From NCBI GenBank assembly GCA_947460795.1, contig CANHJA010000001.1:1-34241 (forward strand): a stretch of 34,241 nucleotides of DNA, read 5' to 3'. The notes beneath the pieces were generated by a model. That model did no database searches and had not been told where the DNA came from. It saw only the letters and a program-made list of their open reading frames with translations. The DNA comes from Bacteroidota bacterium. Lineage in GTDB: Bacteria; Bacteroidota; Bacteroidia; Chitinophagales; Chitinophagaceae. The first letter of the stretch is position 1. The number at the start of each line of letters is the position of its first letter. A program made the translations under genes and the position numbers. This document shows, piece after piece, positions 29,463-34,241 of this stretch.

Positions 29463-29852
29463 TCAATATCCTATTTTTCCAGCTCCCGTGTTTCTATTAT
29501 ATTTGACAGTATAAGGATAGACTTGTTCCGACATTCCATCGTCACCAGGTTTTTTAATTATTTGTAAACTTGTTTTTTCGCCTTTTGCATTTTTAAGTGT
29601 AAATACTTGGGAGTATTTACTTTTACTAAAAGAGCCAGTCATCTTTAAACTTTCATATATTTCCATACCCGCTATTGCAAATATTACTGAATTTTCTAAA
29701 ATGTAGATATCCCAAAATGGCTCAGTCCCAAATCCATGAAACAAGACTTTTATTTTTTTATTTTGAATATCAGTGTACGTTTTTTTAGGGGACTGTGCAA
29801 TTGTACATATAAATGAACAAAGAATTGCAATTAATAATATTATTTTTTTCAT
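29463..29852 (-). CDS. secreted hypothetical protein or lipoprotein
   Basis: 129 aa with a signal peptide (MKKIILLIAILCSFICTIAQ) and a GTEPFWDIYI block. This resembles the GNEPFW motif of small periplasmic proteins of unknown function. Confidence 0.55.
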   Translation of the reverse strand: MKKIILLIAILCSFICTIAQSPKKTYTDIQNKKIKVLFHGFGTEPFWDIYILENSVIFAIAGMEIYESLKMTGSFSKSKYSQVFTLKNAKGEKTSLQIIKKPGDDGMSEQVYPYTVKYNRNTGAGKIGY

Positions 29853-30090: not shown

Positions 30091-32238
30091 TTATTCTTCA
30101 ATTCTTTTACCTTTTGATTTAGCAATAATTTCTTCTGCTACGTTATTTGGAGCAGGAGCATAATGACTAAATTCCATCGCGTTACTTGCACGACCAGATG
30201 AAATAGAACGCAATTGAGTAACATAACCGAACATTTCAGATAATGGAACTTTCGCTCTGATAACTTGCGCACCAGCTTTAGAATCCATACCTTCCAATAA
30301 TCCACGACGACGATTTAAGTCACCTGTAACGTCTCCCATGTATTGGTCTGGAGTTACTACTTCTACTTTCATGATTGGCTCAAGTAAAGTTGGTTTTGCT
30401 TTACGTCCAGCTTCTCTGAAACCTTGACGAGCACACAACTCAAAACTCATTGCATCAGAATCCACATCATGGTAACTACCATCAAATACTCTGATTTTCA
30501 TATCTACAACTGGATACCCAGCTAATACACCATTGTTCATTGCATTTTCAAATCCTTTTTGAATAGCAGGTAAGAACTCTTTAGGGATAGAACCTCCAAA
30601 TAATTCATTCACGAATTGGAATGATTTACCGTCGTTTTCTTTTAACCATTCTGCATCAGCAGGCCCAATTTCAAATTGAATATCGGCGAATTTACCACGA
30701 CCACCAGATTGTTTTTTCAAAACTTCACGGTGTTCAACTTTATTTTGGAATGCCTCTTTATAAGCAACCATTGGAGCTCCTTGGTTAACTTCCACTTTGA
30801 ATTCACGACGCATACGATCTACAATGATTTCAAGGTGTAACTCACCCATACCACTTAAGATAGTTTGTCCTGTTTCTTCGTCTGTTTTAACACGCAATGT
30901 AGGATCTTCCTCTACTAATTTAGCGATAGCCATACCCATTTTATCAACGTCTGCTTGTGTTTTAGGTTCAACAGCAATCGAGATAACTGGTTCAGGGAAT
31001 GTCATTGACTCTAACACAACTGGGTGTTTTTCATCGCATAAAGTATCTCCTGTTTTAATATCTTTAAATCCTACTGCTGCACCAATATCACCTGCTTCGA
31101 TGTAGTCAACAGGGTTTTGTTTGTTTGCGTGCATTTGCATGATACGAGAAATACGCTCATTTTTACCAGTACGTGTATTCAATACATAAGAACCAGAATC
31201 TAAACGACCTGAATAAGCACGGAAGAACGCCAAACGACCTACGAAAGGATCCGTCATGATTTTAAATGCCAACGCTGAGAAAGGTGCTTTTGCATCAGCT
31301 GGTCTTTTTACCTCTTCTCCAGTATCTGGGTTAACACCATCTACTGCATCAATGTCCAAAGGACCAGGTAAGTAACGACAAACAGCATCTAATGCAGTTT
31401 GAACTCCTTTATTTTTGAATGAAGAACCACACATCATCGGAATGATAGAGATATCAATTACCGCTTTACGAATTGCTTCATGCATTTCTTCTTCAGTGAT
31501 TGAATTTGGATCTTCAAAGAATTTTTCTAATAATTTTTCATCGTATTCAGCAACTGCTTCTACTAATTCTTGACGATATTGATTTACTTCTTCAATCATA
31601 TCTTCAGGAATAGGAACTTCTTTGAAAGTCATCCCTTGTGTAGCGTCGTCCCAAACAATTCCTTTCATTGTAATTAAATCTACCACACCTTTGAAATTAT
31701 CTTCAGCGCCGATAGGCAATTGCAATGGAACTGCTTTAGCACCTAACATTTCACGAACTTGTTTTACAACGTTCAAGAAATCAGCACCGCTTCTATCCAT
31801 TTTATTTACGAAACCAATACGAGGAACTTTGTAACGGTTTGCTTGACGCCAAACTGTTTCAGATTGAGGCTCAACACCTGATACCGCACAGAATAAAGCT
31901 AATAAACCATCCAATACACGCAAAGAACGCTCAACCTCTACCGTGAAATCCACGTGACCTGGAGTATCAATGATGTTGAATTTATATTGTTTTGTATCTG
32001 CATTTTTAACACCTTGTGTCATTGGGAAATTCCAAAAACAAGTTGTTGCAGCTGAAGTAATAGTGATACCTCTTTCTTGTTCTTGAGCCATCCAATCCAT
32101 GGTTGCTCCACCATCGTGAACCTCACCAATTTTGTGGTTAACCCCTGTGTAATACAAAATACGTTCTGTCGTAGTTGTCTTTCCTGCGTCAATATGCGCA
32201 GCAATTCCGAAATTTCTTTGGTAGCGTAAATCTGCCAT
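30091..32238 (-). CDS. fusA: translation elongation factor G
   Basis: 715 aa with G1 [10 protein letters not shown]3 DTPGHVDF and G4 NKMD, and full-length domains II-V. Its G+C content is higher than that of neighbouring genes, as expected for a conserved, highly expressed gene. Confidence 0.95.
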
Positions 32239-32456
32239 TTTTGTTGTTTAAATTAATTTATGAATAATAAAAAAACTATTTATTAGCTTTTTAAGAGTTG
32301 CGAAGGTAATACCAATTTTTTAGATAAAAAAAAAGAGTTCGCAATTTAATGTTAAGTTGTTTTTGGACCCCGATTTTTAATGTATTATGATGATATATTC
32401 TTACAAGTGAGCGTGACGACGACAGTTTTATTTATTGGAGACGAAGGAAGCGGTGT

Positions 32457-32540
32457 AGGTTTTGCTTAGAAAGCTTATTGTATCATAAATTACAGGTATG
32501 CTTAGACTGCTTCGTGCCTCGCAGTGACGTCCCCTCGTGG
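32457..32540. repeat. direct repeat copy A (contains a REP-like ~30-nt element, forward orientation)
   Basis: AGGTTTTGCTTAGAAAGCTTATTGTATCATAAATTACAGGTATGCTTAGACTGCTTCGTGCCTCGCAGTGACGTCCCCTCGTGG. It recurs 164 bp downstream as copy B with 3 substitutions in the first 63 nt and 1 more after the insertion point. The 30-mer 32500-32529 is the inverted complement of 32595-32624. Confidence 0.9.
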
Positions 32541-32620
32541 TTGCTGCTATGAAATAATGGAACCTTCAAGATGAGTATAATCTCGATTCCGGAGCGTCGT
32601 TGCGAGGTACGAAGCAATCT

Positions 32621-32722
32621 AGGTTTTGCTTAGAAAGCTTATTGTAACATAAATTATTGGTATGCTTAGACTGCTTCGTGCCTTTCCGAATAGCGGAACA
32701 GGCGCAGTGACGTCACCTCGTG
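32621..32722. repeat. direct repeat copy B (same element, interrupted by a 19-nt hairpin insertion at 32684-32702), abutting the 21-bp array
   Basis: The sequence matches copy A from 32621 to 32683. Then come the extra TTCCGAATAGCGGAACAGG and CGCAGTGACGTCACCTCGTG, which runs straight into the first 21-bp unit at 32721. Confidence 0.9.
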
Positions 32723-33048
32723 CAGGAGCTGGTTCAATACGTGCAGGAGCTCATTCAATACTTGCAGAAGCTGGTTTAATACGTGCAGGAGGTCGTTCAA
32801 TACTTGCAGGAGGTCGTTCAATACTTGCAGGAGGTCGTTCAATACTTGCAGGTGCTGGTTCGATACTTGCAGGAGCTGGTTCAATACTTGCAGGAACTGG
32901 TTTGATACTTGCAGGAGCTGGTTTAATACTTGCAGGAGCTCGTTCAATACTTGCAGGAGGTCGTTCAATACTTGCAGGAGGTTGTTTGATACTTGCAGTT
33001 GATTTTACTAGAAGGGCAGTAACTATTAAAACAAAAAAGGATGTGTAA
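32662..33048 (+). CDS. candidate Gly/Ala-rich heptad-repeat protein (AGAGSIL repeats); mutually exclusive with the minus-strand ORF 32751..33053
   Basis: This ORF runs in the same direction as the downstream genes. Its stop overlaps an ATG of the DUF3817 ORF in an ATGTGTAA arrangement, like aroK/DUF423. It shares the same A/T third positions. Against it, the ATG and first ~20 codons lie inside the REP-like element, and copy A of that element gives only a 9-codon ORF. Confidence 0.25.
   Translation: MLRLLRAFPNSGTGAVTSPRAGAGSIRAGAHSILAEAGLIRAGGRSILAGGRSILAGGRSILAGAGSILAGAGSILAGTGLILAGAGLILAGARSILAGGRSILAGGCLILAVDFTRRAVTIKTKKDV
32721..33000. repeat. tandem repeat of a 21-bp unit, 13 full copies plus a partial 14th (consensus TGCAGGAGCTGGTTCAATACT)
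   Basis: Units start at 32721, 32742, 32763 and so on, every 21 nt, up to 32973, with a partial unit at 32994. Units 4, 5, 6 and 12 are identical (TGCAGGAGGTCGTTCAATACT). Only 9 of the 21 columns vary. Confidence 0.97.
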
Positions 33049-33053
33049 ATCAT
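32751..33053 (-). CDS. candidate secreted heptad-repeat protein (SIE[P/R][A/P]PA repeats); mutually exclusive with the plus-strand ORF 32662..33048
   Basis: The ATG at 33053 gives a non-repeat hydrophobic N-terminus, MIYTSFFVLIVTALLVKSTAS, that looks like a signal peptide. Pro/Ala-rich heptads follow. All consensus third codon positions are A/T, which fits the genome bias. Against this ORF, a promoter would have to sit inside the divergent DUF3817 gene, and the stop is a variant repeat codon. Confidence 0.3.
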   Translation of the reverse strand: MIYTSFFVLIVTALLVKSTASIKQPPASIERPPASIERAPASIKPAPASIKPVPASIEPAPASIEPAPASIERPPASIERPPASIERPPARIKPASASIE

Positions 33054-33073
33054 TTTTGCAGCATCTTTGCGAA

Positions 33074-33388
33074 ATGAACAGCAAGTTGAATTCGATTAAA
33101 CAAATTCGATTAATAGGCATGATTGAAGGTATTTCATATCTTTTTTTATTATTCGTTTCTATGCCTTTAAAATACATCTGGAAAATGCCTCAAGCAGTTA
33201 TCATGAATGGTTGGGTACATGGTTTTTTATTTGTGTTGCTGGCTATTTCGATTTTAAAAACTTGGGTGGTTTGCAAATGGCCTTTTAAACGTGCTTTTAT
33301 AGCTGGCATTGCTTCTTTATTGCCTTTCGGTACTTTTTGGTTTGATAAACGTTTAAAAGAGGAGCAATCATTATACGAACAATATTAA
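33074..33388 (+). CDS. DUF3817 family small integral membrane protein
   Basis: The product reads IRLIGMIEGISYLFLLFVSMPLKY...GWVHGFLF...LLPFGTFWFDKRL, the characteristic DUF3817 pattern. I prefer the ATG at 33074 (104 aa, typical length). The track start at 33041 adds 11 residues and is not excluded. Confidence 0.75.
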   Translation: MNSKLNSIKQIRLIGMIEGISYLFLLFVSMPLKYIWKMPQAVIMNGWVHGFLFVLLAISILKTWVVCKWPFKRAFIAGIASLLPFGTFWFDKRLKEEQSLYEQY

Positions 33389-33397
33389 ATACATTAT

Positions 33398-33976
33398 ATG
33401 ATGAAACAAATCTCTTTTTTTACGCTACTATCTATTTTGGTTATCAGCTTGTCTTCTTTCTTTTTCAATAAAAAAATTGTCAAAAAGCCACAAGCTATTT
33501 TGTTTATGTTGCATCAAAATGAGCGAAAAATTGAGCAATTAAAAAAAATGAATCGCAAAATGGATGCTGATCAGGTGGCCCTTGAAACACAAAATATCAA
33601 CAATTCATTGGTTACTTACTTAAGTTCATCGATCACCTTTTGTCCGGTTTATTTTTTTTACAGTTCAGATTTTGAACAAGTGATTCAAAAGAATTGGGAT
33701 TCGGTACAATTTATTAATAACAGACCTACAGCGAAGCAATTGGAAAATTATTTTATTGGAGACTATAACGAGCCCAGTGGAATTTATTTACACGACGAAA
33801 AATTTCAAGAGCTCGATTTTATACTTAATTATACACCCATACATTTAACCCAAAAAGGCAATGTGGCGGCTTCTTTTTCGATCTTGAAATCGAAAATAGT
33901 TGATGTAAAATTGTACCGATATTACGAAAATTATGAGAAAAGAACCCGCAGACAACAAAATAGAAAGAAACCTTAG
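33398..33976 (+). CDS. hypothetical protein with an N-terminal signal peptide or anchor
   Basis: 192 aa with a hydrophobic N-terminus (FFTLLSILVISLSSFFF) and a basic C-terminal tail. I recognise no family. It lies 9 nt after the DUF3817 gene. Confidence 0.55.
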   Translation: MMKQISFFTLLSILVISLSSFFFNKKIVKKPQAILFMLHQNERKIEQLKKMNRKMDADQVALETQNINNSLVTYLSSSITFCPVYFFYSSDFEQVIQKNWDSVQFINNRPTAKQLENYFIGDYNEPSGIYLHDEKFQELDFILNYTPIHLTQKGNVAASFSILKSKIVDVKLYRYYENYEKRTRRQQNRKKP

Positions 33977-33985
33977 GGCTTGATT

Positions 33986-34016
33986 TTTGTTTTCAACAGC
34001 TTTTTAATTACTTTTG
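33986..34016 (+). promoter_or_regulatory. sigma-A promoter of lpdA
   Basis: TTTG (33986-33989), exactly 19 nt, then TACTTTTG (34009-34016) is a perfect consensus match. It ends 29 nt upstream of the ATG. Confidence 0.75.
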
Positions 34017-34020
34017 CTAA

Positions 34021-34241
<221 letters not shown>

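Follow-up and report, generated by a model that had tools for sequence, protein, structure and literature searches.

A 21-bp minisatellite of variable copy number, probably non-coding and inside a mosaic intergenic element, in a Bacteroidota lineage

What is the array of 21-bp direct repeats that lies between the gene for elongation factor EF-G and the gene for a DUF3817 membrane protein in a member of the Chitinophagaceae: a gene for a heptad-repeat protein, a set of protein-binding sites, or a non-coding repeat? The array lies in an 800-bp gap between the two genes, within a stretch of 34,241 nucleotides (positions 1 to 34,241 of contig CANHJA010000001.1, assembly GCA_947460795.1; hereafter, the window). 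A preceding examination of the letters alone (hereafter, the sequence-only reading) had concluded that the array looks coding, on a strand that could not be settled, and had kept a non-coding array of binding sites as a fallback. The comparison with related contigs leads us to a different answer: the array is probably a non-coding, interspersed, copy-number-variable and lineage-restricted minisatellite located inside a mosaic intergenic element that resembles MITEs (miniature transposable elements with inverted repeats).

The array was described by Tandem Repeats Finder, a mismatch-tolerant consensus search and a direct count of units. Tandem Repeats Finder delineates it at 32721-32998 (period 21, 13.2 copies, 88% matches, no indels, score 381), and the consensus search, with up to 3 mismatches allowed, finds 12 in-register matches in the window array compared to none in 100 shuffles. 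The direct count agrees with the sequence-only reading in that 13 head-to-tail 21-mers are followed by a partial 14th unit (beginning TGCAGTTGA), that one unit, TGCAGGAGGTCGTTCAATACT, is present four times, and that exactly nine columns vary (6, 7, 8, 9, 11, 12, 15, 16 and 21). Likewise, the consensus unit has a G+C content of 10/21, as had been stated, in an AT-rich window (0.46 for the array vs 0.31 for the window), and every third column starting from the first (1, 4, 7, 10, 13, 16 and 19) is A or T. Each unit consists of a 17-nt conserved core, TTCAATACTTGCAGGAG, that spans the unit boundary, and a 4-nt hypervariable stretch at unit positions 9-12. The units directly adjoin each other without spacers, so a CRISPR-like interpretation was rejected. 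For the comparison at the locus of the window, we used contigs that encode an EF-G or a DUF3817 protein identical to that of the window; these contigs appear to derive from freshwater metagenomes and metagenome-assembled genomes (MAGs). All contigs compared are labeled with L-numbers. The relevant features of the window are as follows.

30091..32238, minus strand: EF-G gene (fusA-like) on the left flank, pointing away from the array; EF-G Pfam domains, identical protein on 23 contigs
32387..33023, no strand: composite repeat region between the conserved fusA and DUF3817 upstream regions, delimited by the limits of BLAST homology
32440..32519, plus strand: copy 1 of an 80-nt module (repeat family D2) that comprises the right arm of one hairpin, a 45-nt spacer and the left arm of the next hairpin
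32503..32621, plus strand: "zero-unit" copy of the element, with 27-nt arms (32503-32529 and 32595-32621; inverted pair I1, 85% complementary) around 65 nt without the 21-mer
32604..32683, plus strand: copy 2 of the 80-nt module (repeat family D2), 89% identical to copy 1, at a spacing of 164 nt
32667..32722, plus strand: leader directly 5' of the array, comprising TAGACTGCTTCGTGCCT (arm of an inverted repeat), a 19-nt insert and CGCAGTGACGTCACCTCGTG (junction motif); repeat families D2 and D3, inverted pair I3
32721..32993, plus strand: array proper, 13 full 21-bp units with the consensus TGCAGGAGCTGGTTCAATACT (Tandem Repeats Finder, consensus search, direct count)
32994..33023, plus strand: tail, the partial 14th unit followed by TTGATTTTACTAGAAGGGCAGTAAC; identical in L024, L027, L031 and L032
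33074..33388, plus strand: right flanking gene, DUF3817 membrane protein (PF12823, E = 4e-24); exact 104-aa product on 18 contigs

The distribution of the repeat was assessed with an exact 30-nt pattern across the unit boundary, which, among representatives of 185,579 species, occurs in a single MAG, on two contigs and at two different loci. A similar pattern retrieved 11 contigs from the JGI metagenomes; the viral contig collection contained no matches, and neither did the plasmid and phage collections. The flanks and neighboring genes define at least five array loci on the related contigs, with real genes on both sides in each case.

Locus A: between fusA and DUF3817, as in the window
Locus B: between a TPR gene and a Crp-family gene
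Locus C: just downstream of the lysS terminator
Locus D: beside a gene for a 229-aa protein
Locus E: 460 nt downstream of tRNA-Pro, bordering an island that carries an S24-type repressor

Such scattering of the 21-mer over unrelated intergenic loci is the pattern that the sequence-only reading had itself associated with a generic satellite. The loci share additional sequence besides the 21-mer. The leader family of locus A is also found in L012, and a leader of ~190 nt that precedes the locus-A array on its 5' side recurs at locus B, inverted and 3' of the array. Loci C and D have a second lead-in in common, and L030 and L039 possess a common 200-nt leader in otherwise different surroundings. 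The tails of the arrays are heterogeneous, with at least seven types, and the array at locus A has the left arm only, along with a different tail.

With respect to the tRNA-associated arrays, in L025:3421-4318 and L028:63-870 the array locus lies ~460 nt downstream of tRNA-Ser and tRNA-Pro genes and borders a segment that encodes an S24/LexA-like repressor and is probably an integrated element.

Copy number is highly variable: the arrays consist of 2, 3, 5, 10, 11 or 13 units at locus A, 2, 6, 10 or 15 at locus B, 8 or 10 at locus C, and 5 or 13 at locus E. The shifts between strains, a comparison that the sequence-only reading had proposed, occur in whole 21-bp steps, over a range of 2 to 15. 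Adjacent units are identical more often than expected (24 cases vs 15.7 +/- 3.0 in within-array shuffles, only 15 of 2000 of which reach 24). The set of unit variants differs from locus to locus; for example, G at unit position 9 is found at locus A only (33/67 units, compared to 0/94 elsewhere). The identical neighbors and the locus-confined variants fit local duplication and deletion, with homogenization within each locus.

The arrays also coincide exactly with synteny breakpoints. At locus B, where the arrays are located at L020:1763-1897 (6 units), L023:1125-1344 (10 units), L030:2186-2236 (2 units) and L039:5127-5441 (15 units), all four pairings of two left and two right flanks are observed, with the exchange point at the array, which indicates recombination within or at the array. 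At locus A, cargo has been inserted and deleted at or between arrays. In BLAST alignments with the relatives, the window is ~99-100% identical as far as 32422-32467, and homology resumes at 33024, with strains differing in content between these points. Position 33024 is also where homology restarts in all relatives that lack the array at this locus, and, on the other side, homology to the ~90%-identical L027 and L031 stops at 32386. The contigs L004-L007 terminate at window positions 32422-32467, that is, at the repeat, and scaffolds of relatives contain N-gaps inside the array; metagenome assemblies of near-identical strains thus break in or at the composite repeat region. Among the strains with cargo at locus A, L001 contains three genes, including those for a DUF4116 protein and a GIY-YIG protein, and L011 carries genes for a lipoprotein, a membrane protein, a monooxygenase and a porin-like protein. 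In these strains, the 21-mer array lies on the EF-G side, and a two-gene cassette in L011 and L012 has arrays at both edges. The window architecture is shared by L024, L027, L031 and L032, which are ~90% identical in the intergenic region, possess the right-hand tail TGCAGTTGATTTTACTAGAAGGGCAG and have 5, 10 and 11 units. Other versions of locus A are represented by database open reading frames (ORFs) with 3 and 5 units and by L002 with 2 units. Distant relatives (~80% identical in a 192-aa neighbor protein) have other cargo at the site and lack the array. An exact look-up of the 192-aa protein itself returned no record.

Upstream of DUF3817 lies a hot spot whose content varies between strains. 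For the regions compared with window 32387-33023 (L001:5600-9440, L011:3740-9950, L012:1-3690, L033:1-5660, L035:1-840 and L037:1-2730), the cargo of near-identical and related strains differs entirely and, besides the genes named above, includes an FAD monooxygenase, a Peptidase_C92 protein, an aspartyl protease and an MwoI-type restriction-modification pair; all called cargo genes are on the strand opposite to that of DUF3817. A divergent 60-aa ORF (MDYAFLKEIKWFKKIDKIHMHLKKYSR...) directly upstream of DUF3817 (L011:9763-9948, with equivalents in L001 and L012-L019) is kept in every strain with cargo, and related sequence is detectable in L033 and L037. This ORF is deleted in the window (it is absent from 32999-33023) and in L024, L027 and L031, where the array tail adjoins the DUF3817 upstream region. 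A search for an empty site in the distant relatives L033-L038 showed other cargo in place and no adjacent fusA, which left no basis for defining the ends of the element or target-site duplications.

Several features of the composite repeat region suggest that the array is a component of a larger element. The 27-nt arms of the zero-unit copy form a long hairpin with a DNA fold z-score of -4.3 to -4.7 relative to shuffles (one of the values being -4.65), and in L027 the same arms enclose 2.4 units (z-score -5.35). Given that such inverted repeats can enclose no units, 2.4 or many, the array appears to occupy the loop between them. The leader of the window array is also found 5' of the arrays in L001, L011, L012, L027 and L031; its 19-nt insert holds a small hairpin, TTCCGAATAGCGGAACAGG, and the 20-nt junction motif, CGCAGTGACGTCmCCTCGTG, is present in two copies just upstream of the array. 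We propose a tentative layout in which a leader with 27-nt inverted-repeat arms would be followed by n copies of the 21-mer and a tail, the 21-mer being the expandable inner module of the mosaic.

The flanking modules show changes of their own. In a sister strain, a 36-bp tandem duplication (2.2 copies) is located within the 80-nt leader module (L011:4130-4207), which shows that the modules are themselves unstable.

How, then, did the array come to look like a gene? The three overlapping ORFs reported by the sequence-only reading do exist, and the CRSWFNT, AGxxSIL and LQVLNxL frames are stop-free in the window array; SIEPAPA, also among the four frames claimed to be open, contains one stop near its 3' end, and the remaining two contain 4 and 10 stops. 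Considering that at least four open frames of six are reached by 56-73% of random or shuffled 21-mers in tandem, the open frames of the array are unremarkable. The three ORFs, all probably incidental, are listed below; codon usage was scored by a log-likelihood test under which the true genes of the window attain 0.36 +/- 0.12 per codon and wrong frames never exceed 0.18.

32662..33048, plus strand: AGxxSIL frame, 128 aa; start in the repeated 80-nt module, stop in the conserved DUF3817 upstream region
32751..33053, minus strand: SIEPAPA frame, 100 aa; TGA at the first unit in orthologous arrays
32666..32968, minus strand: LQVLNxL frame, 100 aa, TTG start; stops in 8/21 arrays, codon-usage score -0.59

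The substitution and stop analysis pooled 146 units of 21 arrays. The per-position entropy is 1.03 bits at position 9, 1.85 at position 11 and 0.78 at position 12, and does not exceed 0.62 at any other position. Whether read in the AGxxSIL or in the SIEPAPA frame, these three positions fall on the first or second base of a codon, and the third codon positions that the two frames share (1, 4, 10, 13 and 19) are nearly invariant, which is the reverse of the signature of purifying selection. The excess of synonymous changes by which the sequence-only reading had hoped to recognize the genuine frame is found in neither of the two frames that it favored. Stops interrupt the SIEPAPA frame in 15/21 arrays, CRSWFNT in 12/21 and QELVQYL in 6/21; of the two favored frames, in which that reading had suggested looking for stops in orthologous arrays, SIEPAPA is stopped and AGxxSIL stays open. 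A search of 5.8 billion proteins retrieved seven matches for the plus-strand ORF and two for the minus-strand ORF, all of them short, devoid of Pfam domains and located over 21-mer arrays, with N- and C-termini that differ by locus. A Pfam search with all three array ORFs yielded nothing meaningful. The dispersal of the 21-mer, the stops in the orthologous minus-strand frame, the variation at the first and second codon positions and the unconserved ORF ends, taken together, speak against the view that the array looks coding. The ORFs over the array would then be by-products of a stop-poor unit the length of which is a multiple of three.

Two candidate relationships to nearby coding sequences were examined and dismissed. 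The 60-aa gene upstream of DUF3817 in the relatives was considered as a short homolog of the minus-strand ORF and turned out to be unrelated in sequence. In lpdA, the dihydrolipoamide dehydrogenase gene located just past the window end, L033-L035 encode a GARARALP motif by TGCAAGAGCTCGTGCATTACC, which is identical in 17 of 21 positions to the unit variant TGCAGGAGCTCGTTCAATACT and is in the same frame as AGxxSIL (L033:7071, L034:1673 and L035:2248; L011:11397-11417 differs at two more positions). An origin of the unit from this motif was rejected, the match being judged a chance one (~0.1 expected after multiple-testing correction).

Some observations weigh against the minisatellite interpretation. 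The 34-kb window contains a single array, and dispersal within one genome is directly seen only in the one MAG, on two contigs. The codon-usage scores are coding-like, at 0.43 per codon for AGxxSIL and 0.60 for SIEPAPA, so that the argument of the sequence-only reading from A/T at third codon positions was correct as far as it went, although it rests on seven codons. Of random 21-mers, 23% attain such scores in one frame and 2.5% do so in two, such that coding-like composition in two frames is expected by chance only in ~2.5% of cases. With the exception of a terminal junction unit, every array leaves the AGxxSIL frame open, and the 21-bp period divides evenly into codons. Neither a transposase partner or parent insertion sequence (IS), nor a target-site duplication, nor an empty site was found among the contigs examined. 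Finally, neutral satellite dynamics alone do not explain the strong conservation of the 17-nt core, which could result from recent amplification, gene conversion or a sequence-specific function. The codon-usage signal is weak because the unit contains only seven distinct codons, and it is outweighed by the comparative evidence; the coding-like composition may be a trace of a coding origin.

Three alternatives to a non-coding minisatellite need to be weighed. Under one, the plus strand at 32662..33048 encodes a small protein of the form MLRLLRAFPNSGTGAVTSPR-(AGxxSIL)13-AVDFTRRAVTIKTKKDV, with heptad positions 3-4 under diversifying selection and a strain-variable number of repeats. This is the sole frame open in all arrays, its only three stops all falling within GGTTAAATTTG, the terminal junction unit; the codon-usage score falls inside the range of true genes, gene callers predict the ORF on several contigs, and three locus-A variants with 3, 5 and 13 repeats end alike, in VDFTRRAV(T/I)(I/F)K(T/I)KKDV. 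However, the openness is structural: the hypervariable codon is NNT in 139/146 units and NNC in 7/146, neither of which can be a stop, and, by inspection, only 3/63 single-base changes of the consensus create a stop codon. The variation is nearly all non-synonymous, with the third positions fixed. L027 and L031 lack the start codon, which in the window belongs to the repeated module, and in these two contigs the C-terminus continues for more than 60 codons across DUF3817; at loci B-E, the frame is joined to unrelated termini. Moreover, the ORF has no homologs beyond the arrays among the proteins searched and no Pfam match, and the Bacteroidota-type promoter motif TAnnTTTG does not occur in 32150-33150. 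We therefore consider both this protein and the diversifying selection that it would entail improbable. Far less credible still is a secreted, proline-rich protein of SIE(P/R)(A/P)PA heptads encoded by the minus strand at 32751..33053, notwithstanding an ATG start followed by a hydrophobic, signal peptide-like N-terminus (MIYTSFFVLIVTALLVKSTA) and the best codon-usage score of the six frames. The dinucleotide CA at unit positions 11-12, the second most common variant, always reads as TGA in this frame. In L024, L027, L031 and L032, the very first unit of the orthologous array already shuts the frame, and even in the window the ORF ends with the last two units unread. It is the DUF3817 upstream region that supplies the N-terminus; L027, L031, L011 and L001 lack the ATG, and both database matches are ORF ends that run into an array and stop.

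The third alternative, in which the 17-bp cores, spaced two helical turns apart, form a functional row of in-phase sites bound by a sequence-specific protein, is compatible with a dispersed repeat. The ligand under this scenario could be a protein of the nucleoid or partition type or the parent element's transposase, or it could regulate the adjacent promoters of DUF3817 and fusA. A 17-nt conserved core combined with a 4-nt unconstrained spacer is what a site plus linker is expected to look like, and, by established DNA geometry, a 21-bp period holds the sites on the same face of the helix; the locus-A array ends close to the DUF3817 gene, the start codon of which is 75 nt downstream, and BrickBuilt, an analogous element discussed below, contains segments with promoter activity (PMC4596501). 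Nevertheless, no candidate binding protein, Rep gene or Par gene is encoded near the array, and the core was never found isolated outside arrays in 344 kb of related sequence. The contexts of the arrays are very diverse, mostly between convergent genes or downstream of terminators, and a range of 2 to 15 copies at one locus argues against a tuned architecture. Promoter scans near the array were negative as well: in addition to the lack of TAnnTTTG, a sigma-70-type scan produced six weak matches (at most 9 of 12 positions; 2.7 +/- 1.6 in shuffles), none of them informative, and the single terminator-like site found is no excess over shuffles. Hence, of the fallback kept by the sequence-only reading, the non-coding part is favored, and binding sites as the reason for the array seem to us unlikely, as does each of the proposed ligands. 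At the RNA level, an Rfam scan of 31500-34241 (E <= 1) gave zero matches, and the folded array showed no significant structure on the plus strand (z-score -0.5) and less structure than shuffles on the minus strand (+4.3).

If the array is a minisatellite within a mosaic element, the arrays would lengthen and shorten through replication slippage or unequal recombination, and the element may have spread either through recombination among its copies or, plausibly, by transposition of the whole as a non-autonomous unit. The long near-identical tracts could act as substrates for recombination and thus give rise to deletions, insertions and exchanges of flanks at strain-variable hot spots. The configuration in the window, where the array abuts DUF3817 without the cargo genes and the 60-aa ORF, would be one such recombination product.

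These considerations can be extended to a more speculative, rather doubtful proposition, namely that the arrays are not just passive satellites but portable homology tracts at the edges of gene cassettes, which mediate gain, loss and exchange of cassettes at hot spots such as fusA|DUF3817, the Crp region and the tRNA-Pro region. On this view, the repeats would do what attC sites do in integrons, but with no recombinase dedicated to them. The cassette in L011 and L012, the flank combinations at locus B, the deletion configuration in the window and the same orientation of the cargo genes are consistent with this proposition.

In L011:5722-5815 and L001:8850-8945 (minus strand), the terminal junction unit GGTTAAATTTGCCCATAACG is followed by a GC-rich hairpin whose stem measures ~30 bp (z-scores -4.1 and -3.4). 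The stem sequences of the two strains differ, but they still pair, and both the loop and the flanks ATAACG...CTGTTA are preserved. The hairpin is loosely attC-like, but occurs once per locus, and integron-like attC arrays between the cargo genes were rejected for this reason.

The closest known analog of the array is BrickBuilt, a minisatellite-containing MITE of Porphyromonas gingivalis with a 23-nt spacer-less tandem repeat in 1 to 22.8 copies (Klein et al. 2015, PMC4596501). BrickBuilt has leader and tail segments with inverted-repeat ends, is present in 19 strictly intergenic copies, and is species-restricted and over-called as hypothetical genes (PMC4596501). It is an analog and not a family member by descent. 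Both repeats come from Bacteroidota and are short tandem direct repeats without spacers (23 nt vs 21 nt here), with imperfect units in which conserved and non-conserved positions are separate; in both, the number of copies varies (1 to 22.8 vs 2 to 15 here), several dispersed, strictly intergenic copies are present in one narrow lineage, leader and tail segments, putative ones here, are full, partial or absent, inverted repeats are present, and spurious hypothetical ORFs are annotated over the repeats. In contrast, the terminal inverted repeat (TIR) of BrickBuilt, GAGACCTTTGCA, is absent near the window array, and sequence similarity was not detected, with the 23-nt unit itself not included in the comparison. 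Unlike in BrickBuilt, the unit length here is divisible by three and the composition is codon-like, variation is restricted to 4 nt, the leader occurs in both orientations relative to the array, and neither a TIR that matches an IS family nor a target-site duplication was established. Furthermore, BrickBuilt was not found split by insertions, whereas here a two-gene cassette lies between two arrays.

Two other types of intergenic repeats appear to be looser analogs than BrickBuilt. The mycobacterial interspersed repetitive units (MIRU) are variable-number tandem repeat (VNTR) loci with units of 46-101 bp, reportedly described by Supply et al. in 1997 and 2000. They lie within operons in a fixed orientation, and their small ORFs overlap the stop and start codons of the neighboring genes. 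Like the 21-mer arrays, MIRU are interspersed, minisatellite-like repeats at many intergenic loci, with strain-variable copies and short open frames in the units; the operon setting, fixed orientation and overlapping ORFs of MIRU were not observed here, most of the arrays lying between convergent genes, and a sequence relationship is absent. The BOX elements of Streptococcus pneumoniae consist of boxA, boxB (45 nt) repeated n times, and boxC. They, too, are modular intergenic elements with a central module that is tandemly repeated a variable number of times, and their outer modules can pair into a long stem-loop, as do the 27-nt arms here around 0 or 2.4 units. However, the copy numbers of BOX are usually lower, the elements belong to another phylum and have no sequence similarity to the present one, and here one side frequently lacks its outer module. 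Plasmid iterons and partition centromeres, such as the 22-bp iterons of the R6K gamma origin, F sopC and pSK41 parC, are located beside their own rep or par genes, once per replicon and with a fixed number of sites. The arrays described here resemble them as head-to-tail direct repeats of ~20-22 bp in phase with the DNA helix, but have no adjacent rep or par gene and no plasmid or phage match, occupy several chromosomal loci and vary strongly in copy number; an iteron or centromere array is thus excluded by the missing rep/par genes and by the dispersal.

These findings reveal neither a new protein family nor a new molecular machine. They do imply that the hypothetical proteins that databases list over the arrays, covering three or more frames, are almost certainly artifacts, and the repeat explains the assembly breaks at locus A in this freshwater Bacteroidota lineage. 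For Bacteroidota, the arrays probably represent a second, unrelated case of a minisatellite that sits within a mosaic element flanked by hairpins, and here direct comparative evidence shows them to coincide with synteny breakpoints and with the edges of strain-specific gene content. The arrays should be useful as VNTR-type strain markers and are candidate drivers of micro-diversity in uncultured populations.

Two minor observations concern the surroundings of the array. The EF-G gene (30091-32238) is not preceded by rpsL and rpsG, unlike in the canonical str operon, and is followed by two small genes that encode proteins of 129 and 173 aa without a Pfam match (compare window 29463-29852); it may be a second EF-G paralog or part of a rearranged operon. 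In L011:8302-8706, a second, unrelated tandem repeat with a 42-bp period lies within a 428-aa porin-like ORF, where it specifies TRTKSNNTNERILK-type repeats of 14 residues; a scaffold gap separates its two blocks, which have 3.3 and 4.0 copies.

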